From an uncultured Elusimicrobia bacterium (GTDB lineage: Bacteria > Elusimicrobiota > Elusimicrobia > 2-01-FULL-59-12), in the NCBI GenBank assembly GCA_964441955.1, contig CAYTWA010000002.1, forward strand, positions 137,170-169,169: a DNA stretch of 32,000 nucleotides, written 5' to 3'. This document shows positions 6,091 to 27,647 of this stretch, in pieces; within the stretch, counting starts at the first letter, position 1; every line of letters starts with the position of its first letter. The translations under genes were made by a program, and so were the position numbers. Under the pieces are notes generated by a model. It was not told where the DNA came from. It saw nothing but the letters and a program-made list of their open reading frames with translations, and did no database searches.

Positions 6091-6731
6091 CCGAAGTCGA
6101 CGCGCTGTTGTTTGATTTAGACGGCACCCTCATTGATTCCACCCGCGACTTAGCCGAGTCCGTCCGCCACGTTCAAGCGCATTACCAGTGTCCTTTAAGT
6201 TCGGATTCCCAAGTGGCGGCCTTTATCGGGGATGGCATCGTCAAATTGGTAGAGCGCGCGGTCCCCGGTTTTACCGGCCCAAAGCTCCATGAAGCCGTCG
6301 ATTTGCTGAAAGCGTTTTATCGAACGCATTGCCTGGATCACACACGCCTCCTTCCCGGGGTAAACCAAGTTTTAGAGCATTACCGTACGAAAACCTTAAC
6401 GGTTGTGACGAATAAACCCGAACGCGTTTCGCGCCGCATTTTAAAGGGGCTAGGAATCGACGGGTATTTCAAAAGCGTTTTAGGCGGCGATTCACGGCCC
6501 ACCAAAAAGCCGGACCCGGAACCATTGTTATGGGTTTTAAATACGTTCCAAGTTCCGCCCCGCCGCGCGGTGATGGTGGGCGATGGCCCAAACGATGTTT
6601 TGGCAGGACGAGCGGCCGGGATATGGACAGCCTCGATTCGCTCAACGATTTCTCACAGCCAGCCGCCGACCCCACACAAGGCCGATATCGAGCTTCTCAA
6701 CTTGGCCGATTTGATGCGATTTTTCAACTAG
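6087..6731 (+). CDS. HAD-IA family hydrolase, phosphoglycolate-phosphatase-like
   Basis: HAD motifs I (LFDLDGTLIDS), II (VVTNKP), III (KKPDPEP) and IV (MVGDGPNDVLAGRAAG) are all present. GTG 6087 overlaps the bcp stop (GTGA). The track ORF start at 5979 lies inside bcp. Confidence 0.8.
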   Translation: MTEVDALLFDLDGTLIDSTRDLAESVRHVQAHYQCPLSSDSQVAAFIGDGIVKLVERAVPGFTGPKLHEAVDLLKAFYRTHCLDHTRLLPGVNQVLEHYRTKTLTVVTNKPERVSRRILKGLGIDGYFKSVLGGDSRPTKKPDPEPLLWVLNTFQVPPRRAVMVGDGPNDVLAGRAAGIWTASIRSTISHSQPPTPHKADIELLNLADLMRFFN

Positions 6732-6881
6732 GATAAACGCCTTTAATCTCACCTCACAGACTTCTCAACACGCCGACAAAAATGAAAGATTCAAATGTCA
6801 AAAACCCTCTCTAAATAAGCCTAATTAAACGTTACAGGATCTTTACTTTCGTTTGAGGTCGCTTCCCTTAATAAAGGATAC

Positions 6882-7832
6882 GTGCAAAGCAAAAAGTTTC
6901 TCTTTGCCATTCTCCTTTTCCTTCCCTGCTGGGTCTGGGGCTCGTTTGAAGAGCTGCCCACGGGCGCTCGTCAAGCCGGCATGGGCAGCGCCTTTTCTGC
7001 GCTAGCCGACGATGTCTACGCCGCCTATTACAACCCGGCCGGCCTCGTGCAGCTGCACCGCTCGGAATTTACCGCCTATTATTCGAAGCTTTATGCCGGT
7101 TTAGACGACGGCTCCTCGATCAGTCGCAATTACGTCGCCTACGGTCACCCAACGCGCCGCGGCACGTTGGGTTTCAGCTATCTTTCGCTTTCGCTCTCCG
7201 GACTTTATTCGGAATCGGTGATGGCGCTCCACTACGCGACGGCGATCAAAGATAAATGGAACATCGGCACGAGCCTCAAATTTTTGCGCAAATCGTTCGG
7301 CTCCGACGCATATACGGAAAACGCCATCAACTCAGACACGGGCGTCTCGCTCGGCGCGCCAGACCCGCTTTTTTCCCAAAACGGCTCTTCGAAATCGGGG
7401 ATGGCGCTTGATGCAGGCATCCAATACCGCCTCTCACGCCTCTACGGTTTAGGCTTTACCATCTTAAATCTCAACAGCCCGAATATGGCCATCGCCAGCT
7501 CGGACAGCGACCCAGTCTCGACGGTCTATAAAACAGGTTTGGCTCGCCGCACGAAGAGTTCCTCCGTGGATGCCGAAGTGTCGATGCGCCAATTTACGGG
7601 GAATGAATTTCGCATCAACATCGGCGGCGAACGCTGGCTCAAGGGCGGCTTCGGGTTCCGTGGGGGCTTGGGGTTTGGGCAGCGTCAGTACCAGATGACC
7701 TCCTTCGGCGTTTCATACCGCTGGGAAGCCCTCCAGTTCGACTACGCAATGCTCTACCCACTCTCTGGTGTTAAAACGGGGTTTGGGTCGCACCAGCTGT
7801 CCATGACGTTTCGATTTGGAAGGAAAAATTAG
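6882..7832 (+). CDS. outer-membrane beta-barrel protein, FadL/PorV-superfamily-like
   Basis: GTG start after AAAGGATA and the signal peptide MQSKKFLFAILLFLPCWVWG. The N-terminal motif GARQAGMGSAFSALADDVYAAYYNPAGL is one I recognise from FadL/TodX and PorV/PorQ-type barrels. The sequence has an alternating-strand character with a near-terminal aromatic strand (HQLSMTFRF). Confidence 0.6.
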   Translation: MQSKKFLFAILLFLPCWVWGSFEELPTGARQAGMGSAFSALADDVYAAYYNPAGLVQLHRSEFTAYYSKLYAGLDDGSSISRNYVAYGHPTRRGTLGFSYLSLSLSGLYSESVMALHYATAIKDKWNIGTSLKFLRKSFGSDAYTENAINSDTGVSLGAPDPLFSQNGSSKSGMALDAGIQYRLSRLYGLGFTILNLNSPNMAIASSDSDPVSTVYKTGLARRTKSSSVDAEVSMRQFTGNEFRINIGGERWLKGGFGFRGGLGFGQRQYQMTSFGVSYRWEALQFDYAMLYPLSGVKTGFGSHQLSMTFRFGRKN

Positions 7833-7914
7833 CATGGTTTTACACTTTCGTTACAGGCTTGTGATGCGCACTTTACAGAGGGCCTTTAGACTCCTAGAGA
7901 GAGGTACAAACGCC

Positions 7915-9024
7915 ATGCGAATACTCCCGGCAATGATGGCAGGCTTGCTGATCCTGACGGGACCGGCTGCCTCCCTCCATGCCTGGAGTTGGGATGACGA
8001 TGAATCGATCGGGAAAGACGAACTGGAAACCCAGCTCTTAGGCTACCGCAAACGCGTCGAATCCGGCATCCCGCTTTCCGAACGCATCGTTCTTTTGGAC
8101 CGCCTCATCAAACTCTACGGAATTCATGGCCGAGATGCGAAAGCTCTCGAATTGGAACGCGCGCAGGTGATTGCCGACGAGCAGGCGGTCGCTAACGTGA
8201 GCGCGGCGTCGCGTGAAAAATCCCAAAGCCTTTTCCAACAGGCCTTCGAGCAGATTAAAAACGGTCATTTCCGTGAAGCGCAGCGCCTTTTGGTCGAAGC
8301 CGAACACCTAAACCCCCAGGACAAAATCATCAGCGATCTGCGCGCAAAGACCGACCAAGTGGCCGCCATTTTGGCGGAAGCGCCCCTCGACCCAACGGTC
8401 GGGGATTTAGTCAAGCGCGGGGTGTTGCAATATGTTCAAAACGAGCCGTCCAAAGCGCTTAATTTCCTTGTTTATGCGCAGCAAAAAGACGATACCAACC
8501 CGGATCTTCCGGCTTTGGTGGAATTGGCCAAACGAAGCGTCCCCGAATCGTCCGAAATTTTGGATACGCGTTTGAATTTAATCGACCAGAAGCTTCAGCG
8601 AGCCCTCGAGAAAATTTACTCCGGCGAATACTTGGTGGCCGCCAAAGAATGCCAAGAGGTCTTAGACCTTGAGCCGGATAACGCCTTGGCGCTCACCCGG
8701 TTAGGCTCTGTTTATTACGCCATGGGCCAGGTCAAGCAAGCGCGGTCCTATTGGAAGCAAGCGCAGACACTTGACCCCAAAAACAACGTGCTTAAAAGCT
8801 TTATGGACCAAACCGCCACGGAGGCCGACCGTGCGCCGGCTCAGGCGCTTACCTATAAGGTGGAAAAAGGCGATACCCTTCAAACGATTGCTGAAAAGGT
8901 CTACAAAAACAAAAGTGCCTGGCGGCGAATTTATGAGGCAAACCGGGCGTATATGAAAAACCCGTATCAATTAAGCGCCGGGCAAGTCCTGGTGCTGCCT
9001 CCGGGCGGCGTGTCGGCCCCCTAA
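7915..9024 (+). CDS. secreted TPR-repeat protein with C-terminal LysM (peptidoglycan-binding) domain
   Basis: ATG 7915 gives the signal peptide MRILPAMMAGLLILTGPAASLHA. TPR-like repeats are present (AKECQEVLDLEPDNALALTRLGSVYYAMGQVKQARSYWKQAQTLDPKN), followed by a C-terminal LysM (YKVEKGDTLQTIAEKVY...YQLSAGQVLVLP). The track start 7816 overlaps the upstream gene and is less likely. Confidence 0.7.
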   Translation: MRILPAMMAGLLILTGPAASLHAWSWDDDESIGKDELETQLLGYRKRVESGIPLSERIVLLDRLIKLYGIHGRDAKALELERAQVIADEQAVANVSAASREKSQSLFQQAFEQIKNGHFREAQRLLVEAEHLNPQDKIISDLRAKTDQVAAILAEAPLDPTVGDLVKRGVLQYVQNEPSKALNFLVYAQQKDDTNPDLPALVELAKRSVPESSEILDTRLNLIDQKLQRALEKIYSGEYLVAAKECQEVLDLEPDNALALTRLGSVYYAMGQVKQARSYWKQAQTLDPKNNVLKSFMDQTATEADRAPAQALTYKVEKGDTLQTIAEKVYKNKSAWRRIYEANRAYMKNPYQLSAGQVLVLPPGGVSAP

Positions 9025-9033
9025 TGGAGTGAT

Positions 9034-10518
9034 ATGAAGCGAACGTCCCTTATTGGCTGCATGACTGCGATGCTCCTCGTCGCGGGGTCCATCTTCTCTT
9101 GGGCCAAACTTGAGCGTGAACAATTGGCCATTGAAAGCCAACTGCAAAACCGCATCGAGGGCATTTTGTCGAAAACCCTACCCGCGAACAGCTATTTGGT
9201 CACCGTCAAAGTGGAGATGGATACGACCTCCAAGCCGGTAGGGGGGCGCGCCGCGCGCGCCTCGCGAAATGGAAAAAACCCGTTTTCTTCTCAAAGCCAG
9301 TTCGTCCTACCCGGGGTGCCTCAAAAGAAAGAATTCATCATGCAGGATGAAAAACCCGTGGAGGAAACCGCGGATATTTTCGAAACCGAAACGTTGGTCC
9401 GCCGTATCCTCATTACCATCTTGGTGGCGCCGGACATTGCCGCGGATCAAGTTCGCGGCCTTCGGGAAGTGGTGCAAGCCAGCATCCCATTTAACCCGCT
9501 GCGCGGTGATGAGCTCCAAATTCAAAATTCCAACCTTTTAAAACCGGTTAATCCCAGCAGCGCCAATTCCAAAAATACGCCAGCAGGCCAAACGCCTTCG
9601 CGCAGCGCTCTTTTTGACCGAGCCAATGCGCCTCTTTGGATTTTATTTGGTGTGATCGGCACGTTGTTCATCATCTTCTTGGCTTTTTTGTTTGGTCCAG
9701 TACGCAGTTTTTTGAACCGTCTCTTGGCGGTTTTGCCGCGCGTGGGCGAACAAGCCGCTTATGCCGTCAACAATGCTCCGGCCAAATCGGGAATGGCAGG
9801 AGGGAACGGGAATGGCACGCTCAATGGAACCCTCCAATCTCGGCGGAATGGGACGGACGTAGACGAGGGCCCATTCCGCTTTATTCGCGAGGACCAACTG
9901 AACAAACTTCCCATTCTTTTACGCCAAATGCCGCCCGCGCAGGCGGCTATTGTGGTGGCTTACCTGCCGCCGGAGTGGGCCAGTAAAATGTTTAGCGCTT
10001 TGGATTCCGGGGCGCAGGGGGCGATTATGGGCGAGCTGGCCCAAGCGCGCGAAGTCCCGGCAGAAACCGTCAAAGAAGTGGAAGCGTTTGTGAAGGGAAA
10101 ATTGCCGTATTTAGTCGGCGGGGTGGATTGGGTCCAGTCGGTCTATCAATTAACCCAGCCGCAAACCCAACGGGCGTTGTTAGGGTCGCTGGCGCAGCAG
10201 TCTCCTGATTTAGCGCAAAACCTACGTCGTAAAACATTTTTCTTTGAAGATGTGGCGGTCTTGCCGGCGGGTGCGATGCGTCTTTTGGTCGCCGAAGCGG
10301 GTTACCCGGCGCTTGCTCAAGCCCTGCGCAGTGAAAAAGTGGAATTTCGAAACAGCGTGCTTGTACGCTTGCCCGCCGCCACCCGCGAAATTATTCTTCA
10401 GGAACTCGAATTATCCGGCGAGGACCGCGCCGCGACCACCGAAGCTAAAGTCAAAATCGTCAACTTGGGCCAGCGTCTTTTAATGGACGGCCGCATCCAG
10501 CTGCCGGAGAGGAAATAA
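9034..10518 (+). CDS. bitopic/bi-TM membrane protein: periplasmic FliF/YscJ-like ring-building-motif-type domain + TM + cytoplasmic FliG middle/C-terminal (torque) domain
   Basis: aa 5-23 are hydrophobic (signal or TM). aa 27-165 follow a helix-strand-strand-helix-strand pattern (ESQLQNRIEGILSKTL / YLVTVKVEM / RRILITILVA / ADQVRGLREVVQASIP / DELQIQ), like the LExxLxxxIxxIxGVxxVxVxI ring-building motifs of FliF/YscJ/SpoIIIAG. TM2 is LWILFGVIGTLFIIFLAFLFGPV (aa 200-222), followed by a G/N-rich linker. aa 282-490 are FliG-like: ARM-type repeats (PPAQAAIVVAYLPPEWASKMFSAL), the MFxF-equivalent TFFFEDV, and a charged helix TREIILQELELSGEDR. Confidence 0.6.
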   Translation: MKRTSLIGCMTAMLLVAGSIFSWAKLEREQLAIESQLQNRIEGILSKTLPANSYLVTVKVEMDTTSKPVGGRAARASRNGKNPFSSQSQFVLPGVPQKKEFIMQDEKPVEETADIFETETLVRRILITILVAPDIAADQVRGLREVVQASIPFNPLRGDELQIQNSNLLKPVNPSSANSKNTPAGQTPSRSALFDRANAPLWILFGVIGTLFIIFLAFLFGPVRSFLNRLLAVLPRVGEQAAYAVNNAPAKSGMAGGNGNGTLNGTLQSRRNGTDVDEGPFRFIREDQLNKLPILLRQMPPAQAAIVVAYLPPEWASKMFSALDSGAQGAIMGELAQAREVPAETVKEVEAFVKGKLPYLVGGVDWVQSVYQLTQPQTQRALLGSLAQQSPDLAQNLRRKTFFFEDVAVLPAGAMRLLVAEAGYPALAQALRSEKVEFRNSVLVRLPAATREIILQELELSGEDRAATTEAKVKIVNLGQRLLMDGRIQLPERK

Positions 10519-10521
10519 TTT

Positions 10522-11349
10522 ATGGATTGGGTTACCCTTTTAGGCTACGTGATCGGGTTTGGCACCGTGGGTTTTGTGCTTATTTCCGGCAATTCGCTGG
10601 GGCTCATTTTTAACGCGCACGCTATTATCTTGGTGTTTGGGGGGACGGCTGGTAGCGTACTGCTAAGTTTCCCCGGTCCGATTTTGGCGCAAGCGGTCAG
10701 GGCTTTTCGGGTATTCCTGTTCCCGGGCCGGCGCCCGGAAGCGACCGCCGTCATTAATTTGTTGATGCGTTTTTCGGAAAAAGCGCGCCGCCAAAACCTC
10801 GAAAGTCTGGAGGGGGACGTGGCCTCGGTTCGAATTCCCTTTCTAGCCAATGGGCTGCGCATGGTGTTGGACGGCTTACCCGCGGAGATGGTGCGCAGCA
10901 ACCTTATTAAGGAAATACGTTTCTCGCGCGACCGGCATGCCCAAGTGGCCAACGTGTTTAGAAGTGCGGCGTCCTATGCCCCGATCTTTGGTTTGCTCGG
11001 CACGCTAGTCGGCGTGGTCCAGGTGCTCATGACTTTAACCGACCCTAAAACCATCGGCGCATCCATGGCCATTGCCATGACGGCCACGTTTTATGGAATT
11101 TTTGCGGCTAACTTTTTATTTTTGCCGGTGGCGGGCAAATTGAATGTTTACGCCCAAGAGGAAACCTTTTTGCAGGAACTGATGATCGAGGGCATTTTGG
11201 CCATCGGCCAAAACGAAGTCCCCGCCCTGGTCTTTAGAAAACTCCAAGGATTCGCGGAAGCACACAAACGCGATCAATTGGCGGCTGGACGCCTGGGAGC
11301 CGTGGGGGACGCGGCTCCCGGCGCCGGCGGCCGTCGTGAGGCGGCATGA
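10522..11349 (+). CDS. motA: MotA/PomA-type stator proton(ion)-channel subunit
   Basis: Four TM segments with a ~90-aa R/E-rich cytoplasmic loop between TM2 and TM3. The C-terminal channel helices ASYAPIFGLLGTLVGVVQVL and TATFYGIFAANFLFLPVAGKL match MotA family hallmarks. Confidence 0.85.
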   Translation: MDWVTLLGYVIGFGTVGFVLISGNSLGLIFNAHAIILVFGGTAGSVLLSFPGPILAQAVRAFRVFLFPGRRPEATAVINLLMRFSEKARRQNLESLEGDVASVRIPFLANGLRMVLDGLPAEMVRSNLIKEIRFSRDRHAQVANVFRSAASYAPIFGLLGTLVGVVQVLMTLTDPKTIGASMAIAMTATFYGIFAANFLFLPVAGKLNVYAQEETFLQELMIEGILAIGQNEVPALVFRKLQGFAEAHKRDQLAAGRLGAVGDAAPGAGGRREAA

Positions 11350-11981
11350 TTGAAAAACTGGGTCCCATTTTTGTTGAACGCCGAAACCAATACATTTGGC
11401 TGACGATCTACTCCGATCTCATCACGAACCTCTTTTTGCTGTTCCTAAGTCTTTTCGCCTTGTCCTATTTCGGTCCGGACGCCCTTCAAGATGCGATGGC
11501 TTCCATGAAAACTCGCCTTGAATACCAAAAGAAGGCCGCCCCCTGGTACGCGGATTTGGCGCACAACCTCAAAATGGTTTCTGACCAAGATGCGCCGATT
11601 GTGGCGCGTGAAGACCGCTTGCAGATGGCCCTTCCGGAAGAGGTGTTGTTCGGCGCGGGAGCAGGAGAGCTTCGCACGCAGGACCAGCTCGTGCTGCATG
11701 GCTTGGCTAATGCCCTGCGAAACGTTCCGTACACCGTTTTGGTGGAAGGCCATACGGATGACACGCCGCTTAAGGCCGGAAGTCGTTACGCGTCCAATTG
11801 GGAGTTATCGATGGCTCGGGCAATGGCGGTGGTCCGCTATTTGGTCAAGGTGGAACGCATGCCTCCAGAGCGGGTGGGGCTTGCCGCTTTTGGAGAACAC
11901 CACCCCCGCGTGCCCAACCTCTCGGAGGAAAACCGCGCGATGAACCGGCGCATCGAAATCAGCGTGCTGCGTTATGAATGA
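11346..11981 (+). CDS. motB: MotB-like stator subunit with OmpA-type peptidoglycan-binding domain (paralog 1)
   Basis: A single N-terminal TM carries the invariant Asp (WLTIYSDLITNLFLLFL). The C-terminal OmpA-like domain reads VLVEGHTDDTPL...SNWELSMARAMAVVRYL...NRRIEISV. The start overlaps the motA stop (ATGA). Confidence 0.8.
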   Translation: MIEKLGPIFVERRNQYIWLTIYSDLITNLFLLFLSLFALSYFGPDALQDAMASMKTRLEYQKKAAPWYADLAHNLKMVSDQDAPIVAREDRLQMALPEEVLFGAGAGELRTQDQLVLHGLANALRNVPYTVLVEGHTDDTPLKAGSRYASNWELSMARAMAVVRYLVKVERMPPERVGLAAFGEHHPRVPNLSEENRAMNRRIEISVLRYE

Positions 11982-12609
11982 GGATTTTGCCAACCCCTAC
12001 AAGCCCCTCATTGACGAGGATCGGTCCGAAGAAATAAGCCACCTTTGGATTGTTTCGTACAGCGACTTTATGACCATTTTGATGATTTTTTTTCTGATGT
12101 GTTTTGCGCACCGCGTCTGGGAGAAAAAAGTGTTTTTCGAAGACCAAAAAATCCGGCGCGAGCGCGCCATCCGGGAAGTTCAAGACGGCATGGTTCGACG
12201 GTTGGACCGTTTAAGTACCATCGACGTCCAAGCCGAGCGCATCGATATCCACCTGCCCGATTCGCTTCTTTTTTCCGGGGGGCAGTCCGACATGCGGGGC
12301 GCCGCTAAATTGCTGCTGGCCGACATTGTGCCCGACCTTAAGAAATTCAAAGGCGACATTATTGTGGAAGGCCATACGGACGATTTGCCCTTAGGTCGTC
12401 ATTCGCATTTCGGTTCAAACTGGGAGCTTTCAACGGCGCGCGCCTTCAGTGTGATCAAATTTCTCGAGCAGGAAGGGGTTGACCCCGGAAAAATGTCGGC
12501 GCGAGGCTACGGCGAATACCGTCCACGCGTGCCCAACATTTCGCCCGAAAACCGGGCCGAAAACCGGCGCATTGAATTGATTCTGCTCAACCCCAGGAAA
12601 GACGGTTAA
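11974..12609 (+). CDS. motB: MotB-like stator subunit with OmpA-type peptidoglycan-binding domain (paralog 2)
   Basis: The TM carries Asp (WIVSYSDFMTILMIFFLMCF). The OmpA-like domain reads IIVEGHTDDLPL...SNWELSTARAFSVIKFL...NRRIELILL. The gene overlaps the upstream paralog by 8 nt. Confidence 0.8.
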   Translation: MNEDFANPYKPLIDEDRSEEISHLWIVSYSDFMTILMIFFLMCFAHRVWEKKVFFEDQKIRRERAIREVQDGMVRRLDRLSTIDVQAERIDIHLPDSLLFSGGQSDMRGAAKLLLADIVPDLKKFKGDIIVEGHTDDLPLGRHSHFGSNWELSTARAFSVIKFLEQEGVDPGKMSARGYGEYRPRVPNISPENRAENRRIELILLNPRKDG

Positions 12610-12611
12610 TC

Positions 12612-14723
12612 ATGCCTAAAAAATGGTTTCTGATCATTTTGGCCATCGTGGTCATCCCCGTGACGATGACTTCATGGAAGGTGATTCAGTATGCCCGGGA
12701 ATCCAAAAGTCAGATTTACGAGCTCCACCGGCATATTGTAACGGCCTTGGCGCTCAATACGACCGCTTACTTCCAGCAGCTCAACATGCGCTTGGCCTTC
12801 GCGCCATTGTTGTCGCGTGCCAAAGGGTGGGGGGAACAAGTGGCGGTGCTCAATAACGCTTTGTTGTCAAATAGCGACTTTTCCTGCGTGGCCGTCATCG
12901 ATGCTTCCGGAAAGGAATTGGCCAAAGCCTTCGATATTAAAGCGCGGGGTTTCGCTCCGGCGCTAACCCGCGGAAACGATCCCTTTTTTCAAAAGGTGAG
13001 CCGCACGCGCAACGCCGATACGGGACCCGTTTATGAGCGCGACGGCATTTCCTATTTCGACGTTTTGTATCCGCTCGCCTCCGGGCAAATGTTGATGGTG
13101 GCGATTCGCTGGGAGGGCTTAAAAAAGGTGCTCTTCGACCAAAAAGTCGGACAAGAAGGCTACATCCGCCTGTTGGATGAAGAGGGCCGCATCGTCGGGG
13201 ATTCGCTCAACAGCCACGTGGGAAAGACGGTTTCTGATTGGTATTTTTTTCAAGATCGAAAAGAAAACGCAGCCCCTTGGTTCGGCGAATTCGACGATAC
13301 GCAAAAGGTCCCCTCTGTGGGGGCTGGGCAGTGGATCGCGGGTGCTGGGTGGTTTGTGCTTTCGGCGCAACCCCAATCGGAAGCTTATGCCAAAACGCGG
13401 GACTTGCGAAACAAAGCCTTCCTCTGGATGGCCGGCAGTTTCGTCGGGGTTTGTTTTTTTGGTTATTTTTGGGTCATGCACATCAGCCGCCCGATCACTC
13501 GCTTAGCGGCGGGTGTCACGAACGTGGCGCGAAGGCGCTTTGACCAGCACGTCCCGGAAGACTACGGCCTCGAAGAATTCCGCGCTTTAGGGCAGGCGTT
13601 TAACCGGATGATGACGGAACTTAAAAGCTACAACGACTTGCAGGTTGAAAAAATTATTGAAGAACAAACCACGAGCAAATCCCTTCTCTTTAACATCCGT
13701 GACGGCATCGTGATGATTAACGAAAAAAGCGAAATTCTTTTCGCCAATGACCCAGCCAAACAATGGACCAAAGACACCGCGGGCCGTGGAAAAGAGGACT
13801 TCAATAAATCGTGGGCTTCCTTACAAGAGTACCCGCCTTGGATGGACCTGTTGCAGCCCGTTTTAGATGGGGAAAAAGCTAGCTCTTCAGAAGAGTTCGA
13901 ATTTCCCGTGCAAGGCCGTCCCCGGTGGGCCCGCGTATTGGCCCAACCTGTTTCCACGGAATCTGGACGACGGTTGGGCATCATGGTGTTTATTCGAGAC
14001 ATTACCCAAGACAAAGAGTTGGACCGCATGAAAGAAGACTTTTTTAACGGGATCACGCATGACTTGCGTACGCCGCTGGCGGCGACGATCGGTTACTTGG
14101 GGTTGTCCGAGCTTCAGGTGCCCCAAGGCGAACAGGAACTGAGCAAATTGGTGAGTTCCGCGCGGCAATCGGCCAAGCGCGCGCTGGGGCTCGTAGAAAC
14201 CATTTTAAGTTTGGCGCGCTTGCAGGCCGGAAAACTGAACCTTAATTTTTCGCCCGTTCAGATCAAAGGGGTGTTGGAAAAAATTGCCGGGGATTTGCGT
14301 TTCCATGCGGAAGCCAAAAAAATCCACTTAAGCGCCGAATGTTTAGATGAGAAACTTTGGGTCAATGCCGATGCCGGTATGATCGACCGCGTGATCGAAA
14401 ACTTAACCGGAAACGCCATCAAATACACGATGGAAGGCGGGTGGGTGAAACTCTCCGCCAAGGCGGTGGATGAGGGCGTCATGATCTCCATCCAAGACAA
14501 TGGCCGAGGAATCCCTCCGGAGGCCATAAAAAAACTTTTTGGCAAATTCCAGCAAGTGAAAGCCGAAGACCGCGCTGTAGGATTCGGTATCGGGTTGTCC
14601 TTCTCGAAAGGGATTGTAGAAGCCCACGGGAGCGCCATCGATGTAGAGTCGGAAGTCGGTAAAGGGAGCCATTTTCACTTTACGTTGCAGCGCGCCCAAG
14701 CCCCCGCCGCCAAAGCCGCTTAG
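12612..14723 (+). CDS. sensor histidine kinase (periplasmic sensor domain, HAMP, PAS-like, HisKA, HATPase_c)
   Basis: Two TM segments (aa 5-22 and ~268-290) flank a ~245-aa periplasmic domain. Then come a HAMP-like segment (ISRPITRLAAGV...AFNRMMTELK) and the H-box FFNGITHDLRTPL (His483, nt 14058-14060). The N box LTGNAIKYT, G1 IQDNGRGIP and G2 GFGIGLS follow. Confidence 0.85.
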   Translation: MPKKWFLIILAIVVIPVTMTSWKVIQYARESKSQIYELHRHIVTALALNTTAYFQQLNMRLAFAPLLSRAKGWGEQVAVLNNALLSNSDFSCVAVIDASGKELAKAFDIKARGFAPALTRGNDPFFQKVSRTRNADTGPVYERDGISYFDVLYPLASGQMLMVAIRWEGLKKVLFDQKVGQEGYIRLLDEEGRIVGDSLNSHVGKTVSDWYFFQDRKENAAPWFGEFDDTQKVPSVGAGQWIAGAGWFVLSAQPQSEAYAKTRDLRNKAFLWMAGSFVGVCFFGYFWVMHISRPITRLAAGVTNVARRRFDQHVPEDYGLEEFRALGQAFNRMMTELKSYNDLQVEKIIEEQTTSKSLLFNIRDGIVMINEKSEILFANDPAKQWTKDTAGRGKEDFNKSWASLQEYPPWMDLLQPVLDGEKASSSEEFEFPVQGRPRWARVLAQPVSTESGRRLGIMVFIRDITQDKELDRMKEDFFNGITHDLRTPLAATIGYLGLSELQVPQGEQELSKLVSSARQSAKRALGLVETILSLARLQAGKLNLNFSPVQIKGVLEKIAGDLRFHAEAKKIHLSAECLDEKLWVNADAGMIDRVIENLTGNAIKYTMEGGWVKLSAKAVDEGVMISIQDNGRGIPPEAIKKLFGKFQQVKAEDRAVGFGIGLSFSKGIVEAHGSAIDVESEVGKGSHFHFTLQRAQAPAAKAA

Positions 14724-14774
14724 GTCTGGAATCCTAATTTGTGACTTCAAAAGTCTGAGTGGCATAATGTAGGC

Positions 14775-14957
14775 GTGTCCCTTGAAACCCATTCTGTTCA
14801 GTGTCCCTACTGTGGCGAGACCATCGAAATAGATGTGGAGCCGTTAGAAGAAACCCAATCCCTCATCGAAGATTGCACCGTTTGCTGCCGCCCGGTGCAG
14901 TATGAAGTCACATCAACAGACGAAGGCATCGAAGTAACGGCCGCTCGCTCGGACTGA
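14775..14957 (+). CDS. CPXCG-motif cysteine-rich small protein (putative zinc ribbon)
   Basis: 60 codons from GTG 14775. CPYCGE ... EDCTVCCRP is the paired-Cys pattern of the CPXCG small-protein family. Confidence 0.65.
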   Translation: MSLETHSVQCPYCGETIEIDVEPLEETQSLIEDCTVCCRPVQYEVTSTDEGIEVTAARSD

Positions 14958-14981
14958 CGGCGAGACCTTAAACGGCAGAAA

Positions 14982-15369
14982 GGGCGGTAAGCCTTGACGA
15001 CGGTAAGCCTTGAAGGCAGCGAAAGGAAACAATTTTTTAGAAAGACACAAACCGGCGTGGCCTGATCAATGCGTTCCTCAATGCTAATTCCACTGGCTGC
15101 CGTTTAGGCATACCGCCCCCCAGGTTTACCGCCGTCTGGTGTTGGAGAGACTCGGCTACCTCGAAGGTCGAGACGGGGCGGTACGCCTTGACGACGGTAA
15201 GCCTTGAAGGCAGCGAAAGGAAACAATTTTTTAGAAAGACACAAACCGGCGTGGCCTGATCAATGCGTTCCTCAATGCTAATTCCACTGGCTGCCGTTTA
15301 GGCATACCGCCCCCCAGGTTTACCGCCGTCTGGTGTTGGAGAGACTCAGCTACCTCGAAGGTCGAGACG
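14982..15369. repeat. tandem direct duplication, 2 x 194 bp, each unit internally self-complementary
   Basis: Unit 1 (14982-15175) and unit 2 (15176-15369) differ at only two positions (14990 a vs 15184 c; 15154 g vs 15348 a). Within unit 1, 14983-14993 pairs with 15123-15133, 15001-15009 with 15107-15115, and 15015-15020 with 15096-15101. Confidence 0.9.
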
Positions 15370-15538
15370 GGGGCGTGGGGGGCGTCTTACGTTTGGGGAT
15401 GGGAAGGCAAATGCAGCCGCTAAAGCCGCACCCCATGCAGCAGTAATTCTTTTTGCCGATTTGAAAACCTTGTGCGGTGGCCCAGCGGGACTTCTTTAAA
15501 TTGCAGTTAGTACAGGCGGCCATGGCGCATTGTAGCAT
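15350..15538 (-). CDS. possible small Cys-rich metal-binding protein (TRASH/YHS-like C-x2-C-x20-C-x3-C; SmtA-reminiscent)
   Basis: The minus-strand translation from ATG 15538 is MLQCAMAACTNCNLKKSRWATAQGFQIGKKNYCCMGCGFSGCICLPIPKRKTPPTPPSRPSR, with 8 Cys in the first 44 aa. The spacing C9-x2-C12-x20-C33-x3-C37 fits the TRASH signature, and GKKNYCCMGC recalls the NGLYYCSEAC of SmtA. No Shine-Dalgarno is visible, and the 3' end runs into the 194-bp repeat. Confidence 0.3.
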   Translation of the reverse strand: MLQCAMAACTNCNLKKSRWATAQGFQIGKKNYCCMGCGFSGCICLPIPKRKTPPTPPSRPSR

Positions 15539-15545
15539 CTGCCGG

Positions 15546-15725
15546 AAGGCGTTCGGGGGGATAACAACGTTTAAGGACAGCAAAGCGTTCAGGGTCCTGA
15601 CGGCGTTCAGGGACACACAAGCGTTCAGATTCAAAACGTCGTTCTTCGTTGAACGCCGTCATGCCTCTGAACGCCTTTGCGTCCCCGAACGCCGTCAAGT
15701 CATTGAACGTCGTTGTAAGTTGTTT
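15546..15725. repeat. ten tandem 18-bp units forming a long imperfect palindrome (GCGTTCAG arm / CTGAACGC arm)
   Basis: Units read in register from 15546: AAGGCGTTCGGGGGGATA, ACAACGTTTAAGGACAGC, AAAGCGTTCAGGGTCCTG, ACGGCGTTCAGGGACACA, CAAGCGTTCAGATTCAAA, ACGTCGTTCTTCGTTGAA, CGCCGTCATGCCTCTGAA, CGCCTTTGCGTCCCCGAA, CGCCGTCAAGTCATTGAA, CGTCGTTGTAAGTTGTTT. The symmetry centre is near 15645-15650. Confidence 0.85.
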
Positions 15726-15771
15726 TAAGGCCCAGGGCCCTTCAGGCTCATTTTTCCAGCCCTTTCGCTCA

Positions 15772-15800
15772 TTGGCCATTCCCTCGCGTTTGCCTATAGT
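15772..15800 (+). promoter_or_regulatory. candidate sigma70-type promoter of the giant ORF
   Basis: TTGGCC (15772-15777), a 17-nt spacer, then TATAGT (15795-15800), 37 nt upstream of ATG 15837. It is flanked by the direct repeat TCCCTCGCGT(T/C)TGC at 15780-15793 and 15800-15813. Confidence 0.35.
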
Positions 15801-15836
15801 CCCTCGCGTCTGCACCAAATAAAAGGCAACCTTACT

Positions 15837-18800
15837 ATGCACTTATTAACCCGCGTTCTTTCAACCGTTTTATCCTTCGCGCTCTTAATTCCATCCCTGG
15901 CACAACCGTCTTTGGCTTCTCCGGTCGCTCTTCCTTTTGACTTATCGCCACGCTTGGGCTTTATCACCGAGTCTTGGGCGAGTTCTTCTTCGGCCCCCCG
16001 TATCGTGATCATCCAAGACCTCCACCTGCACTACGAAACGCAGAAACGCATCATCAAAATTTTAGATCACCTCTTTACCCAGAAGATCGTCTCGGGCCCC
16101 GTGGCCGTGGAAGGGGTCGAAGGCGTCTACGACACCACCAAATTAGCCGTCTACCCCGCGGGCAAACTCAAAACAAAACTCGTGGACTATTTCCTTAAAA
16201 AAGGCGAGCTTTCGGGGGATGAGGCGTTCTCGATTCTCAAGGGTGACGGCAAGATTCTTTATGGGGTAGACAGCGCGTCTTATTACGGCCTTAACAAAGA
16301 CCTCTACAAAAAAACCCTGGCCAGCCGCCAAGCGTTGGAGGCCAAGCTCAAACCCATCCAAGAAGAACTTTCCTACTTAAAGAAGAAGCACCGCCGCGAC
16401 ACCTCGGTTTTAGGCCAAAACGTCAAACAGGCGGGTGAGATGGTGAACCTTTTGCAGCGCCTCTTGCATCAAGAAGTGACGTTGGAAGAAGCGCGGTATA
16501 TCGCCCAGCGTCTCCCGGCGTTCGTGGAGGTGTCCGAGAAACTTCTCTCATCTTCGTCCCCGCAGGTCGTAGGCGGGGACCCAGCGTCTTCAGATCTCGA
16601 AGAAACCATCCGCTCAGCGGTCGACTTCTACATCGTAGCCCTGATGCGCGACAAGCCGCTGGCGCAGAACACGGTGAAGCTGTTGAAGCGATTAAGCGAT
16701 GAAGCGAGTAAGCGAGTAAGTGATTCTCCTCACTCACCCACTCGCTCAATTGCTTATTCTCCATCACTCGCCCTTGTCACCGGAGGCTTCCACACCGCGG
16801 GCCTCACCCGCGCCTTTAAACAAGCCAACATCAGCTACACCGTCATCACCCCCCGCCTAGACAAAGCCCCCAGTGCGCAGTCCCGTGCGCTTTATGAAAA
16901 ACGACTTTCCAATATTTCTTTGGATCAGGCAGAGATGTCTTCAGATCTGCACCTTTCAGTAACAATGGTTGCTGTTCGTGCTAGTAAGGTTTTTGAATTG
17001 CTTCCTCTGGCTTGGGACAAGTTAACCGCAAAGCGAACACTCCGATTCCCTTCCATCCGGTTTCGTTCCCCGCGGCGTATGCGTACTCAGTTTGGTGGTA
17101 TCCCTTTTAACTCCTCGAACTCTGACAGAGAGGAAACGAAAAATTTGGCCGAGGTCCTTTCTCGGTGGTCTGGCTTAAAAGAAGATCTTCGCAATGGGAT
17201 CGCTCTGTATTTAGATAAAAAGAAATCCGAAGGTGTTTTTACGGCTGAAAAGGCTGCGGCATTGCTTGAAAAGACAATGACCCAGGTGGAGTTGTGGGCG
17301 ATCAGTTCCTCGATTGACCGGTTTACTCGTTTGGGCATCGTTCGGGCGATTGAAAATCAGCGCTGGGAAGACATCGTGACGGCCTTTAGTGATCAGCTGA
17401 AGTTTGGCACCGCGGGCCCTCGGTCAAAAGCGGCACTCACCACTGATGAATTGGTGTCACTTCGTGATCATGGTTTTACAGCGCCTATTTTAAAAGGATC
17501 CAACACCGTCAACAATGTGACGATCGCTCGTTTGACGACGGGTGTGGCGCGACACTTTAAGCGAACTCAAGTGGCGAAAGGGCGCACGACGCGCCCCCGT
17601 GTCTCCATTACATGGGACAGCCGCGTTCATGGGCGTGGTTTTGCCGATCTTGTGGCGGCCATTTTTATTCATGAGGGGTTGGATGTTTTCCTTTTCGATG
17701 TGAGTTCTCCAATGCCAGAAATGTCGTTTTCTGTGGCGGAACTCAAGTTGGACTTAGGGATCTTAATTAGCGCCTCTCATAATCCAGAAGCCTTCAATGG
17801 GTACAAAGTGAGCGACCCTGTGGGCGCTCAATTATCGCCAACACTGCGAAAAGCCATTGAAGCTTCCATCTATGGTGATCCTGCGAACGGCATTTTTCCC
17901 GTGACGTTGGAAGATGTCGCTTGGATTGTGAAGGCGTCCGCAAATCTTGCAGATCCTACGGGCGTTATTCGGCTACCCTCCAAAACCATGGGGCCTTTAA
18001 CATTCATGGCTTGGCAAGAAAACGGCAGGAAGGGTTTAACTTTTTTGGGACAGGAAGATCCCCCTGCAACTGCAAACGGTATTCCGGCCGTTCGCAATAT
18101 TCATGAAGCCCATCGCCGGCATGTGTTGGACCTTTTGTTGTTGCCAATTAACGTTATTCGTGAACATCTTGCGAATATGTATTCTTTGTATTCAGCCATG
18201 TATGGTAATGGGGAAAATACGTACAACCGCTTGCTGATGAATCCCGAAGGCCTGGGGTTGCCTTCCCATTCTGTAAAAGAGTTTGCCCGCTTGGATGGGC
18301 TTTTTCCTCTATTTGCAAACCACAAACCCAAAGCCTTGATCCCTGACCCTGGGAATTCGGCTGGGCAAGCCCATGCGTGGGCCGTGGTCATGCAGTCGCT
18401 TCGGGAAGAATTGGGTTCTGAAGAAAAAATGAAGCGAGTGCTTTTTCAGATTGGACAAAAGCGAGGGCTTGTAATGGGTACGGATCCCGACGCCGATCGC
18501 GCGGGTGTGGCTGTCCCCATACCAGCGGAGCAATTGTCCGATGACCCGTCCATTCAAGAAAAACAACTCGTCTTTTACGTGGTGCCGCCTCAATGGCGTG
18601 AGGAGGTGGATTTTGCGGCGCTGCGACTTCTTCCTGCAAACGATACCTGGGCGTTGATTACAAAATACCGCATCGATCGCCTTTCAGAGATTTTGACGTT
18701 TGATCAAAAGAAAAATCTGCACTTTTCGATCATTAAGACGCACGTCACAACGGATCAAATCAAAGCCCTTAAGGCCTATGCTGAGTCCAGAGGGTTTGCT

Positions 18801-21800
18801 CATATCGAAATTATTGAACCGTTCGTGGGGTTTTCGTTGGTGGCGGATGCTATTCGAGACGGATGGCGTCGTGGTGTCATCAATATCAGCGGACAAGAGG
18901 AAAGCGGGGGTTTTTCTATTGGAGGAGCGCCGCCGGTGATTTATGCGTTGCTTCACCTTTTTCAAAAAGATAATCAGCTTGGATTAGATTGGGATGAGGA
19001 GGAAAATTCTTTAATTAAAAAAAGTTCTCCCTCTTCGACTGATTCTGTGTTGTTATCAGACAAAGTGAGCTATTACGGATACTCGCAGCAAGAACTTACC
19101 GAAGCTTTAGGATATCTTCTAGATCAGAATATTCTAATGATAGATGGTGCCGGATATTATTCTTTGCGTCATGATTATCGAGGATTAAATCATGATGATT
19201 TTTGGGCGCGCGTAAATGGGTTTGTTGATGATGCTCCAGGATCGCGCCTCGGAAAACGCGGGCACACCATGGAAAAAGACGGTCTCATGGCGTTGGTGTT
19301 GCTGGCCGAAGTGGCTGCGTATGCGTCCAGCTTGGGGAAAACACTCAACCAGTATTTGTGGGATGAGCTCTATGCAAAGGTGGGGTACTTCTCAACTACC
19401 AATCAATCCAAAGAGTTTGCTTTTACTCAAGCCGGGGCAGCGGAAAAAATTAGGTATCTCCAAAGCGTTCTCGAGCATGCTCGCCGAGTGGGCAATGGCT
19501 GGAATCTCAGCATTGACCATAAATTGGTTGCTCGGGTTGAGATCTTTGTTCCTAAGGATCAAAAATATGCCGATTCCGAAAATTTCCCGGTCGAATCGTA
19601 TAAGGATTTGCTGCCACTTTTAAGCGATCCAGAGCTTCGAAACAATCCAGCCTTGCTCAAAAGTTTCTTCCCTGAAGAAGGAGTGCGTTTTTACTTCACC
19701 GATGGCAGTCATTTGACCGTTCGTCCTTCGGGAACCGAACCCAAGCTTCGCTTTTACGTTCAGTGGCTCGCCACCGACATCCAAGGTGACATGACGGAGG
19801 CCCAGCGATACCAAAAAGCCGACATCACCGCCTACGATGTGGCCATCGCCGCCAAATCCGTTTTGGGTGCAGCGCCAATAGCCCATTTAATGGCAAATGA
19901 GCCTATTAATTTGATCCATTTCAAGTCAGGCGCCGCCGATGGGCCGGCCCCGGAGAGCGGTTTGGTTCGAATCGAGGACATCATTAGGGCCGTAGTTTGG
20001 GACGAAATTCCTGGGGCAAAGAGGCTGGCTCATGGGCTTACGGGAAAGAAGCTCCGCCATTATGGGGCCGCGAGAGTTTTCGTTAATAATCTCCGTTCCA
20101 ATGACATCGTAATCGGAATCCCTCTGGAGGAAGCAGCAGGCGCTCGCGGCAGAGAAACGATTGTCGGAAAAGTTCGTTCTGTTGTTAGCACCGGCGACGA
20201 CCGACCCGGCGCTGTCATTGACTTTCGAACGGTATATCCTGAAGACGAACATCACTTTGCCTTCTACCGGCTCGCCTTTTGGGCGAATGAGATCGTTATT
20301 CCGCAGCCACACGTAAATCACCTGCTAAACAATCGACTAACGCCACAAGAGGCGCACAAAAAGTTAAGGGGTCGCAAAATTGTCCTAAGTGGTCATGGCC
20401 CTTTCACGCTGGCAGCGCTTGCCAACGCCTACCGAGAAGCGTTCCCAGAATTCCGCTCGGGATTTATTTCTGTTCTGGTCGATGGCAGGCAGCGCATCAC
20501 CGATCCCGAGGCCGATTTAACGCCGTATGAAACTTTTGAGTTGGCCAGTTTCGGGTCAGGCGCCGCAGACGGGCCGGCCCCACGCGAGCGTAGTCATGAC
20601 AAAGACGCCATCCTGGCTGATATCGCCCCGTATCTGGAGGCCGGCGTTCGACGCTACCTCGATGCGGAACACAAACTTGGTTACATCACTTCGTCAGAGC
20701 GAGTTGCACATGAACAAAAAACATTGAGCCGATTTTTAATGTTGTTTGGAGACCCAGGAATTGGCAATGAGGTGCGGCGTTTGATGGTCAAAGCCGTCGT
20801 AGAAAGGCGTTGGGAGGCTTTGGTTCATACTTTTGGCGTCCTTCTCGACCCCGTCATGCCCCATTCTGACCAGGAACTACTTTCACCTGAGCGAATAAGC
20901 CCTGTCATTCTGAAAGGGCTTATCCCACCGCTGACGTTGTTGCGCACTCGTATTTGGAGCTTTGTTATGTATTTGTGGCGTTTAATCTACCCTCCCCAAC
21001 ACTGGGAGAAAACAGTACATATCCCTTTTCAGTTGAAGATTGGAATTGCAGACCCTGGGATGGGGGGCGTTCCGGTTGTTCTCCGCGGTGAAGGAAAGCC
21101 TACGTTAGGGAATATCCTTGATGCGTTGCGTACTCACTATCCACTAGCCAAAAATATAAAGCTTGCAGCGTTTGTGGATGGTCAAATATCAACTACTGAT
21201 CGTAGAGCCAATTTAGGCCGCGCAAAAAAAATTGAGCTTGTATGGCACCCTAGCGGCGCCGCTGATGGGCCGGCCTCAGACGCGGGTAGTCATGACAATG
21301 ACGCCATCCCGGCCGATATCGCCTCTCATCTTGAGACCGGAATTCGAAATTATCTCGATGGGGAAGACGAACGTGGTTACATCATTTCATCAGAGCGAGT
21401 TGCATATGAACAAAAAACATTGAGCCGATTTTCAATGTTGTTTGGAGACCCAGGAATTGGCAATGAGGTGCGGCGTTTGATGGTCAAAGCCGTCGTAGAA
21501 AGGCGTTGGGAGGCTTTGGTTCATACTTTTGGCGTCCTTCTCGACCCCGTCATGCCCCAATCCGACAGCGAATCTCTATCCGCCCAACGTATTATTCCCG
21601 TAATTCAGCAGGGGCTTGCCTTGCCACCGACCATCCAGGGTCCCCATTGGGCTAGATTGGTTTCGTTGTCCGAGCAATTGTCCGCAGCGACAGGGCAGGC
21701 GAAAGGAACCGCGATTCGTTTGGATGGTACGGAGAGTCAACGGTTTACGATGCAGGATCTCTTGGATGCTTTTTGGGAGAAATTCCCGAATCTCCGAAAT

Positions 21801-22849: not shown

Positions 22850-23045
22850 AACGCGACGGGTAGAGGAATCTCGTGAAAATCGAGAGCTGCCCCGCAACGG
22901 TGAATGGTGGTGAGTAAGCCAGTAAGCGAGTGAGCGAGTAAGTAAGGAGTGACTTTCCATAATCGCTTACTCGCTCAATCGCTCACTCACTTCTTTAAGT
23001 CCGGTCTACTGTCCGTCGCCATCCTAAAACTTCGAGGGAAGGAGC
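22850..23045 (+). promoter_or_regulatory. cobalamin (B12) riboswitch
   Basis: GGAAUCUCGUGAAAAUCGAGAGCUGCCCCGCAACGGUGAA (22865-22904) matches the conserved cobalamin-riboswitch core as I recall it (GGAAnCnGGUGnnAAUCCnGnGCUGnCCCCGCAACUGUAA; compare the E. coli btuB leader). There is a B12-box-like AAGUCCGGUCUACUGUCC at 22997-23014. The P1 candidate is GCGACGG 22853-22859 / CCGUCGC 23013-23019. The SD GGAAGGAG precedes ATG 23051. Confidence 0.75.
22910..22990. repeat. second copy of the octamer-array palindromic element, forming the variable arm of the riboswitch
   Basis: GTGAGTAAGCCAGTAAGCGAGTGAGCG (22910-22936) pairs with CGCTTACTCGCTCAATCGCTCACTCAC (22964-22990): 27 positions with 5 mismatches and a 27-nt loop. 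The unit GAGT(A/G)AGC is the same as in the element at 16685-16772. Confidence 0.7.
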
Positions 23046-23050
23046 CTTAC

Positions 23051-23575: not shown

Positions 23576-23588
23576 GAGCGAGGGCGTC

Positions 23589-27637: not shown

Positions 27638-27647
27638 TTCGCTCATC

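Follow-up and report, generated by a model that had tools for sequence, protein, structure and literature searches.

A single-chain protein with FliF RBM3-like and FliG regions, encoded beside stator genes in an Elusimicrobia bacterium: candidate rotor subunit of a small, probably non-flagellar rotary module

Why would a bacterium of the phylum Elusimicrobiota encode parts of the flagellar proteins FliF and FliG in one polypeptide, directly upstream of genes for a flagellar-type stator? The locus that raises this question lies in a 32,000-nucleotide (nt) stretch of contig CAYTWA010000002.1 from an uncultured Elusimicrobia bacterium (assembly GCA_964441955.1, positions 137,170 to 169,169), which we analyzed as a whole and refer to as the window. 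An earlier note made from the sequence had described the product of one of its genes, 494 amino acids (aa) long, as a miniature FliF fused to FliG. Most free-living Elusimicrobiota reportedly lack structural flagellar genes yet carry "numerous" homologues of motAB, flbD, and fliG, the role of which has been called "enigmatic" (bioRxiv 10.1101/2022.07.08.499144, section 13). The occurrence of fliG and motAB homologues in nonflagellated Elusimicrobiota has thus already been noted (bioRxiv 10.1101/2022.07.08.499144). We found no description in the open-access and bioRxiv literature of the half of the protein that resembles ring-building motif 3 (RBM3) of FliF, of a natural single-chain family, or of an operon composed of a barrel, a tetratricopeptide repeat (TPR) protein, MotA, MotB, and a second MotB (MotB'). 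We consider, with a probability of roughly 60%, that the fusion serves as the rotor subunit in a small rotary module powered by ions, which has no switch and in this lineage most likely works outside the flagellum.

The open reading frame (ORF) comprises 494 codons without interruption. Its product is arranged as a signal peptide or anchor, an RBM3-like domain, a single transmembrane (TM) segment, a juxtamembrane helix, a Gly/Asn linker, and the FliG middle (FliG_M) and C-terminal (FliG_C) domains. These parts, assigned with Pfam/NCBIfam, a profile search of the PDB, AlphaFold, and Foldseek, lie in the window as follows.

9034..10518, + strand: single-chain FliF(RBM3)-TM-FliG(M+C) protein, 494 aa
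9034..9105, + strand: signal peptide or N-terminal anchor, aa 1-24 (K2/R3, hydrophobic core, then SWA/K), from sequence reading and family conservation
9106..9531, + strand: FliF RBM3-like ring-building domain, aa 25-166 (alpha1, beta1, insert, beta2, alpha2, beta3; ends in FNPLRGDE)
9220..9396, + strand: insert between beta1 and beta2, aa 63-121, at the beta-collar position, with an invariant LPGVP-KK
9619..9699, + strand: predicted TM helix, aa 196-222, equivalent of FliF TM2
9697..9774, + strand: juxtamembrane cytoplasmic helix, aa 222-247, GPVRSFLNRLLAVLPRVGEQAAYAV
9775..9888, + strand: disordered Gly/Asn-rich tether, aa 248-285
9889..10104, + strand: FliG middle (ARM_M) domain, aa 286-357
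10120..10503, + strand: FliG C-terminal domain, aa 363-490, after the invariant Gly-Gly 362-363
10231-10251, + strand: KTFFFED hinge, within FliG_C
10375-10413, + strand: torque helix, within FliG_C

The periplasmic half had been read as a ring-building-like segment, and the profile and structure comparisons bear this out. As the query for this domain, we used aa 24-172 cut from a 41-sequence family alignment (A1) and realigned (A2, 33 members). FliF provided the four best PDB matches of the resulting profile (E = 2.5e-4, 3.6e-4, 0.033, and 0.18), and one PDB profile alignment to FliF spans the whole periplasmic domain. In that search, FNPLRGDELQIQNS of the fusion aligns to GFSDKRGDTLNVVNSPF of Salmonella FliF, and the aligned part takes in the RGD motif with which RBM3 ends. 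Pfam PF08345 (YscJ_FliF_C) was matched by 33 of the 33 A2 members (best E = 3.6e-7); the fusion itself matches it over aa 122-166 with 14.1-17.9 bits, under the cutoff of 23.8, and more distant fusions exceed that cutoff (24.2-37.9 bits). The NCBIfam model for fliF (TIGR00206) was matched with E = 3.7e-6 at model positions 402-497 of 555, corresponding to the end of RBM3 plus TM2, and with a score of 26.2 bits that is far under the equivalog cutoff of 129.75.

The AlphaFold model of the domain consists of a helix to residue 48, a strand at 54-62, a disordered insert at 63-117, a strand at 122-131, a helix at 137-150, and a strand at 160-165. As modeled, this alpha-beta-[insert]-beta-alpha-beta order is that of the ring-building fold, with an insertion where FliF has its beta-collar. 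A Foldseek comparison of the domain model alone with the PDB returned FliF RBM3/S-ring structures as its top 17 of 17 matches (E = 3.6e-5 to 5e-3, TM-score ~0.52), and OsmC-like folds and EscJ/SctJ of type III secretion systems ranked after FliF, with E > 0.04. Examined separately, the domain therefore resembles FliF RBM3 and not an unrelated fold. Collectively, the profiles and the model support homology of the periplasmic part to FliF RBM3, with the curated threshold unreached by this particular sequence. The label "miniature FliF" holds in that RBM3 and TM2 are both present; RBM1 and RBM2 (PF01514) are missing, as Pfam scans gave no match to PF01514 in the fusion or its family, and RBM3 begins directly after the signal peptide. 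The insert had low confidence in the monomer model and is marked by family conservation. Its LPGVP motif (aa 92-96, window 9307-9321) is invariant in the close family, and the L, P, G, and final P are nearly invariant even in fusions that are 20-25% identical; the aligned segment of Vibrio FliF differs.

The strong TM helix proposed earlier corresponds to a helix at 196-220 in the AlphaFold model, and the alignment to the fliF hidden Markov model (HMM) runs through it. The juxtamembrane helix (222-247 in the model) is the most conserved stretch of the entire fusion, with 12 invariant columns between G221 and A241. The Gly/Asn-rich linker proves to be a disordered segment (247-285, with pLDDT < 50 over 247-276), and both its length and its sequence vary within the family.

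The cytoplasmic half was confirmed as the middle and C-terminal region of FliG, both Pfam domains being over their cutoffs: FliG_M (PF14841) at aa 295-357 with 33.2 bits (cutoff 25, E = 6e-8) and FliG_C (PF01706) at aa 385-490 with 57.3 bits (cutoff 23.3, E = 2.2e-15). In addition, aa 269-494 align to the sequence of the Thermotoga maritima FliG-MC crystal structure (1LKV) with E = 8e-21, and the full fusion model matches 13 FliG structures in Foldseek (E = 2.5e-10 to 1.7e-7). The hinge and torque-helix positions also fall where they had been placed: in the alignment to T. maritima FliG, TFFFED corresponds to MFVFED and TREIILQELE to the torque helix. G362, G363, F402, F403, E405, D406, and E457 are invariant in the fusion family, and R451 and Q456 are at least 90% conserved. 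E457 is the equivalent of Escherichia coli D289, and the K264 equivalent is R or K; R465 is the equivalent of R297 when the sequences are aligned with HMMER, though not with MAFFT.

FliG_N is lacking, as the earlier note had stated. Of the 338 positions of the fliG model (TIGR00207), the fusion matches 112-326 only, which cover the M and C domains; its score is 68.5 bits, and the cutoff is 226.7. A weak FliG_N match (22.2 bits, below 25) overlaps FliG_M. In place of the noncovalent junction between the FliF tail and FliG_N of the flagellum, the protein has a peptide tether. The EHPQR motif for FliM binding is likewise absent, with EHPQ changed to MPPA and R160 to E, and the motif position is variable across the close family.

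Among the topological features, a hydrophobic N terminus (aa 5-23) is indeed present, with K2/R3 ahead of it and a family-conserved A/K-[YLF]-E-x-E after it. Residues A24, E27, E29, and Q30 are conserved across the 41-sequence alignment; the AxA-like site that follows the hydrophobic segment is conserved as well, and cleavage is possible. This segment is probably a cleavable signal peptide rather than a FliF-type TM1. A lipoprotein reading of LIGC (aa 6-9) was rejected, given that the Cys is too near the N terminus and is not conserved. Basic residues lie after the TM helix (R224, R229, and R236) as well as before the first hydrophobic segment (K2/R3), from which the positive-inside rule gives a periplasmic RBM3 and a cytoplasmic FliG_MC. 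We therefore predict a bitopic inner-membrane protein. The earlier claim that it has the topology of FliF in one chain holds for the periplasmic domain, TM2, and the cytoplasmic part, but probably not for TM1. As to the start, a Shine-Dalgarno GGAG lies 7 nt 5' of the ATG. The public copy of the protein (P0001, on a 539,981-bp contig) has 485 aa, its start having been called at Met10; since homologues begin with a similar short basic N terminus (MKxx...), we favor the start at 9034.

The architecture recurs widely. Approximately 80 full-length colinear homologues were found (47-72% identity), and all named ones come from metagenome-assembled genomes (MAGs) of Elusimicrobiota. An alignment of 41 orthologues has a mean column identity of 54% and 71 invariant columns, and one orthologue is encoded by a complete chromosome of 2.72 Mb (OY969767.1). 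We searched 1.84 billion 50%-identity cluster representatives exhaustively with HMMER, using the periplasmic domain, and obtained 209 matches at E ≤ 1e-3; the best 150 of these were assigned to architecture classes by a local-HMM rescan. Among these 150, 85 combine a signal/TM segment, RBM3, a TM helix, and FliG_MC, with a median length of 496 aa; another 20 are canonical FliF, in which the domain lies at ~230-370 and which have two TM segments and no FliG (one, P0156, was verified by Pfam as PF01514+PF08345); 37 are fragments; and 8 have an RBM3-like domain without FliG_MC. Independent assemblies with the fusion architecture come from NCBI, ENA, JGI, and Logan, and their number is well over 100. 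The source names of the distant fusions are Elusimicrobiota, Nitrospirota, Ca. Saganbacteria, and Ca. Margulisiibacteriota, and one 4.9-kb contig labeled Thermoprotei is probably misbinned. This taxonomic breadth was taken from cluster look-ups; a profile search with an alignment of distant fusions (A3) gave one paralogous Elusimicrobiota family only, and that search is biased, its word index being dominated by the family of the first sequence. The databases name family members "FliG C-terminal domain-containing protein," "flagellar motor switch protein FliG," or "hypothetical."

Several relatives show other domain combinations. Some distant fusions carry extra C-terminal TPR repeats, and P0239 (836 aa) has a HisKA-HATPase_c core ahead of RBM3-TM-FliG_MC. 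P0084 (629 aa, from an Endomicrobia MAG) combines TPR repeats with FliG_MC, and P0083 (578 aa) combines FliG_MC with an NHL/SGL beta-propeller. Three further proteins of ~480-570 aa (P0180, P0185, and P0191) consist of a signal peptide, Pfam YscJ_FliF_C, and a late TM segment, without RBM1/2 and without FliG; P0209 and P0241 resemble these RBM3-only proteins in the local HMM scan only.

Seven + strand genes, which overlap or are separated by gaps of at most 10 nt, make up the operon, and the fusion gene comes third among them. The earlier note was silent on the MotA-MotB-MotB' genes downstream, and these greatly strengthen its idea of a minimal rotor. The other six genes are as follows.

6882..7832, + strand: outer-membrane beta-barrel of the PorV/PorQ family (FadL-like), with signal peptide; first gene of the operon
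7816..9024, + strand: periplasmic protein with TPR (Pfam TPR_2, 3.9e-14) and a C-terminal, peptidoglycan-binding LysM domain (6.7e-8)
10522..11349, + strand: MotA, flagellar-type (PomA/MotP-like) stator A subunit (Pfam MotA_ExbB, 1.5e-22)
11346..11981, + strand: MotB paralogue 1, with TM Asp (YSDLIT), plug (MotB_plug, 4.4e-7), and OmpA-like peptidoglycan-binding domain (1.6e-16)
11974..12609, + strand: MotB paralogue 2, with TM Asp (YSDFMT), plug (MotB_plug, 2.1e-8), and OmpA-like domain (8.2e-14)
12612..14723, + strand: dCache-HAMP-PAS-HisKA-HATPase sensor kinase (Pfam); in the close family, this gene ends the operon

MotA matches the NCBIfam models for flagellar MotA/PomA/MotP with E values of 1e-50 to 1e-54, and MotA/PomA in the PDB with 3e-42. 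Because it does not reach the equivalog cutoffs (184 vs 237 bits), we regard it as a divergent member. We aligned 16 operon-linked MotAs with what we take to be the E. coli MotA sequence, used as a landmark only; the alignment to solved MotA is consistent. The equivalent of R90 is R or K in 15/16, that of E98 is E or D in 13/16, and P173 and P222 are kept in all 16. The operon stator is thus apparently competent, as the residues for ion-coupled rotation and for contact with FliG are retained. The two MotB proteins form separate orthogroups, with 47% identity among MotB1, 44% among MotB2, and 32% between the two types. Nearest neighbors fall within a type, also in the paralogous locus L014 (loci fetched for comparison bear L numbers). 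It follows that the two genes arose by an old duplication and have both been retained. A MotB/MotB' heterodimer would predict such a conserved pair, and so would two stator types on one MotA. In two loci, one copy lacks the TM Asp, namely MotB1 of L012 (15680-16306, SYTGM) and MotB2 of L017 (10231-10887, PYSTFM), with the Asp kept in the other copy; this hints at an asymmetric pair of B subunits.

The barrel matches NCBIfam NF033709 over aa 24-312 with E = 9e-20 and 71.5 bits, under the cutoff of 90, as well as Pfam TraF_2 (2.8e-6); its orthologues match UPF0164. The likely true start of the TPR-LysM protein is the ATG at 7915, which gives the signal peptide MRILPAMMAGLLILTGPAASLHA followed by W. 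This protein, which also has a weak match to the C-terminal part of FlcA (E = 0.006), adjoins the fusion in both close and distant loci.

All seven operon genes recur in orthologous loci. When ORFs were clustered from 21 sequences (the window plus 20 fetched loci), representing 17 nonredundant locus groups, the fusion was found in 17, the barrel and/or the TPR protein in 16, MotA in 16, and MotB in 12, usually as two copies. These core genes accompany even fusions that are merely 20-25% identical. The kinase keeps its position in the close-family groups W, L001/L002/L005, L003, L004, and L008, and a related kinase lies upstream of the L020 cluster. Among the other loci, the order is TPR-fusion-MotA-MotB-MotB'-REC/GGDEF in L014; TPR-LysM, fusion, MotA, MotB, and MotB in L020; and fusion-MotA-MotB-MotB-TPR in L017 (Nitrospirota). 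L012 contains a giant ORF, TPR, the fusion, a protein of no assigned kind, FlbD, MotA, and two MotB genes. L016 contains a giant ORF, a barrel::TPR gene, the fusion, MotA, and MotB, with PilZ nearby, and L018 (Saganbacteria) contains an FlgD_ig protein, barrel::TPR, the fusion, MotA, and a LysM-type B subunit. In L019, TPR precedes the fusion, and two PorV barrels and two proteins bearing a C-terminal domain (CTD) lie within 9 kb. The barrel (UPF0164/Toluene_X-like) and TPR protein form one ORF in L016 (8336-9883) and L018 (788-2368), a Rosetta-stone link implying that they work together. The giant ORFs, of 14,454 aa (L012 1-7823) and 16,931 aa (L016 1-8090), end directly 5' of the TPR/barrel gene, and that of L016 ends in a weak FlgD_ig/Por_Secre_tail-like CTD. 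No Pfam domains were found in the recurrent ~800-aa proteins beside the distant fusions of L012, L016, and L019, and, apart from the fusion, barrel/TPR, MotA, and MotB, no family was common to these three loci in the ORF clustering.

Scans for promoters and terminators over 6500-16000 gave sites no more numerous than in shuffled sequence; the operon boundaries therefore rest on gene spacing and synteny. We found no flagellar genes elsewhere in the window, the remainder of which encodes repair, redox, TonB-receptor, and polyamine functions, and none within 8-10 kb of the fusion across the 11 close-family locus groups.

Given that the conserved operon has its own MotA and MotB genes and no other flagellar genes, the fusion is probably the rotor of a small rotary machine. 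The absence of EHPQR and of nearby fliM and fliN genes argues that this rotor is probably switch-less, and the lack of export-gate, rod, hook, and filament genes alongside, together with the missing RBM1/2, that the module most likely works outside the flagellum in this lineage. Rotor function thus appears likely from the sequence and model, and the non-flagellar status of the window's family is probable. Four points weigh against this interpretation. The equivalent of R281 is Ala or Gly (with R451 two residues later) and that of D288 is Gln, so that the MotA-FliG interface differs from that of E. coli. P0134, a 480-aa protein of the same architecture from Ca. Margulisiibacteriota, heads a genuine flagellar cluster (L021 3096-14538, JBAZKV010000024.1) that continues with motA, motB (plug+LysM), fliK, flgD, flgE/G, fliM, fliN, fliO, fliP, fliQ, fliR, flhB, and flhA; this MotB has a LysM domain in place of the OmpA-like domain. 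The superfamily is hence not intrinsically non-flagellar, and in the P0134 lineage the fusion could itself act as rotor of the flagellum. Complete sets of flagellar genes are present in a few Elusimicrobiota (bioRxiv 10.1101/2022.07.08.499144). Finally, we identified no output element for the module, such as an axle, an adhesin, or a substrate.

The second and third of these points favor the view that the protein is the MS-ring plus FliG of a real but divergent flagellum, other genes of which lie elsewhere in the genome, with the fusion standing in for the binding of the FliF tail to FliG_N. Its stators are also of the flagellar type with a plug, and flbD, a typical neighbor of flagellar motA, precedes motA in L012. 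We nevertheless consider this quite unlikely for the window's family. RBM1 and RBM2, which form the inner rings around the export gate in MS-ring structures, are absent; the FliM site is lost; and none of the 11 close-family locus groups has a flagellar gene nearby, the partners being the PorV-like barrel, TPR-LysM, and the kinase. In addition, the divergent fusion families each have their own MotA and MotB genes, and structural flagellar genes are reportedly missing in most free-living Elusimicrobiota.

It is somewhat easier to imagine, though still unlikely, that the ring is a static docking or activation platform, in which FliG_MC recruits and unplugs MotAB, the ion flux or MotA rotation energizes the TPR protein and barrel as in a Tol-, Ton-, or type IX secretion system (T9SS)-like conduit, and the fusion acts as a scaffold. 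The parts encoded do span the envelope (barrel, TPR-LysM, inner-membrane protein, and stator), barrel-TPR fusions exist, and cargo-like proteins with CTDs (Por_Secre_tail/CHU_C/FlgD_ig), PorV barrels, and giant ORFs adjoin several distant loci; moreover, 5:2 motors commonly drive outer-membrane processes (PMC12204202). However, the parts retained are exactly those by which the flagellum receives torque, i.e., the acidic residue of the torque helix, the MFxF hinge, and MotA R90/E98, and a ring bound to rotating MotA pentamers would be driven unless anchored, and no peptidoglycan anchor is seen in the fusion itself. Isolated flagellar homologues in a lineage mostly without flagella might also be functionless, decaying relics of a lost flagellum. 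This is highly improbable and effectively refuted by conservation: the ORF is intact, the column identity and 71 invariant residues noted above hold across 41 orthologues, the operon is tightly packed with MotB1 and MotB2 kept as separate orthogroups, and the architecture persists in 85 divergent 50%-identity representatives, with catalytic and interface residues conserved. As for the idea that two genes were wrongly joined during assembly or gene calling, we found nothing in its favor, and it is already refuted by the colinear architecture in independent assemblies, among them the complete 2.72-Mb chromosome.

We propose that tens of copies of the switch-less rotor subunit would oligomerize through RBM3 and the stacking of ARM_M and ARM_C, giving a ring in the inner membrane. 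MotA5(MotB/MotB')2 units would be held on peptidoglycan by their OmpA-like domains, and TPR-LysM, tethered to the PorV-like barrel, would probably position these units as a peptidoglycan and outer-membrane scaffold. The stator units would then push the FliG_C torque helix and the ring would turn. Control may be exerted through the co-encoded sensor kinase or, in paralogous loci, through REC-GGDEF or PilZ (parts of cyclic di-GMP signaling). In this way, the module would couple ion flow to a process in the periplasm, at the outer membrane, or at the cell surface.

The resemblance to FliF (Salmonella 6SCN/6SD1/8T8P and Vibrio 8Z4D) lies in the alpha-beta-[insert]-beta-alpha-beta fold followed by a TM helix and in the RGD motif before the last strand. 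FliF itself builds a ring of ~33/34 subunits. The fusion differs in lacking RBM1/RBM2, the C-terminal tail that binds FliG_N, and probably TM1, in place of which it has a signal peptide. The collar insert of FliF is ~110 aa long, versus ~59 aa here, and the LPGVP motif of the latter is specific to the superfamily. With FliG (T. maritima 1LKV), the protein shares ARM_M, the Gly-Gly linker, ARM_C, the MFxF hinge, and the torque helix with its conserved acidic residue; the differences are the missing FliG_N, the change of EHPQ...R160 to MPPA...E, the altered R281/D288 equivalents, and the covalent tie to a membrane helix. Rings resembling the MS-ring do assemble from FliF-FliG fusions that were engineered in Salmonella and Vibrio (PMC6079021, PMC10941966, PMC11481574), so that covalent linkage is compatible with assembly. 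Those are laboratory constructs that join full-length FliF to full or N-truncated FliG inside a complete flagellum, whereas the present protein is natural, has a minimized FliF, and comes with dedicated stator genes and non-flagellar partners.

In the Vibrio T-ring (MotX/MotY), in Campylobacter (PflA/PflB), and in the spirochaete collar (FlcA), periplasmic proteins of the TPR/Sel1 type and with peptidoglycan binding hold MotAB around the rotor. The TPR-LysM protein resembles these scaffolds in its combination of TPR with a peptidoglycan-binding module, but has no detectable orthology with them, and it is coupled, sometimes by fusion, to a PorV/FadL-like barrel. The T9SS and the gliding apparatus of Bacteroidota use the 5:2 motor GldLM, PorV/PorQ/PorP barrels, the TPR and peptidoglycan-binding protein PorE, and giant CTD adhesins such as SprB. 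The likeness consists in an ion-driven motor accompanied by a PorV/PorQ-family barrel and a TPR/peptidoglycan-binding protein, with CTD or giant proteins in some distant loci. In contrast, the motor here is MotAB with a FliF/FliG ring instead of GldLM, SprA/Sov and PorK/N were not found, the barrel is under its family cutoff, and the association with CTDs is seen in some loci, not in this window.

More tentatively, and as a reading less likely than not, the operon may encode an undescribed non-flagellar rotary machine that spans the envelope. A switch-less single-chain ring, driven by heteromeric MotA5-MotB-MotB' stators within a TPR/PorV-like cage anchored to peptidoglycan and the outer membrane, might power a cell-surface process, for example, the movement or secretion of large CTD-bearing surface proteins. 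If true, type IX secretion and gliding would have an analogue in Elusimicrobiota and neighboring phyla that is powered by a flagellar motor.

The proposed rotor subunit may have broader significance. A flagellar rotor would be reduced to one polypeptide of ~500 aa paired with its own stator genes, and such a natural minimal rotor-stator system would be far easier to express, image, and reconstitute than a whole basal body. The torque core (FliF RBM3, FliG_MC, and MotAB) would be found apart from type III export, the rod, and the FliM/FliN switch, which bears on how motors are assembled or dismantled in evolution. It also provides a concrete hypothesis for the motAB and fliG homologues of the mostly nonflagellated Elusimicrobiota. 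The two conserved MotB orthogroups suggest a heterodimeric stator axle, which, to our knowledge, is not known for flagellar stators. According to a recent survey of how MotAB evolved, the plug goes together with flagellar motility (PMC12505986); stators that have a plug but belong to apparently non-flagellar operons would depart from this rule.

The window contains further features downstream of the operon. After the histidine-kinase gene, 14977-15364 is a perfect-register tandem duplication of a 194-nt unit, the copies being 98% identical and without an Rfam family; the Rfam matches in this repeat-rich intergenic region were to miRNA hairpins only and were judged spurious. A large imperfect palindrome of GAACGCC/CGTTCAG repeats with 18-nt spacing occupies 15546-15722, just 5' of a 2,212-aa ORF (15837-22475), and may be a regulator-binding array. 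In this ORF, Pfam recognizes only domains I and IV of phosphoglucomutase, which lie at widely separated positions (aa 556-678 and aa 1267-1308); nothing is matched in the C-terminal 500 aa, and the ORF is not conserved beside the operon in orthologous loci. Finally, 22949-30480 encodes a DUF6580 protein and two adjacent TonB-dependent receptors, followed by AdoMet decarboxylase, spermidine synthase, and an Orn/Lys/Arg decarboxylase; near the operon of L001, DUF6580 likewise occurs with a TonB receptor and with an Orn/DAP/Arg decarboxylase of a different family.

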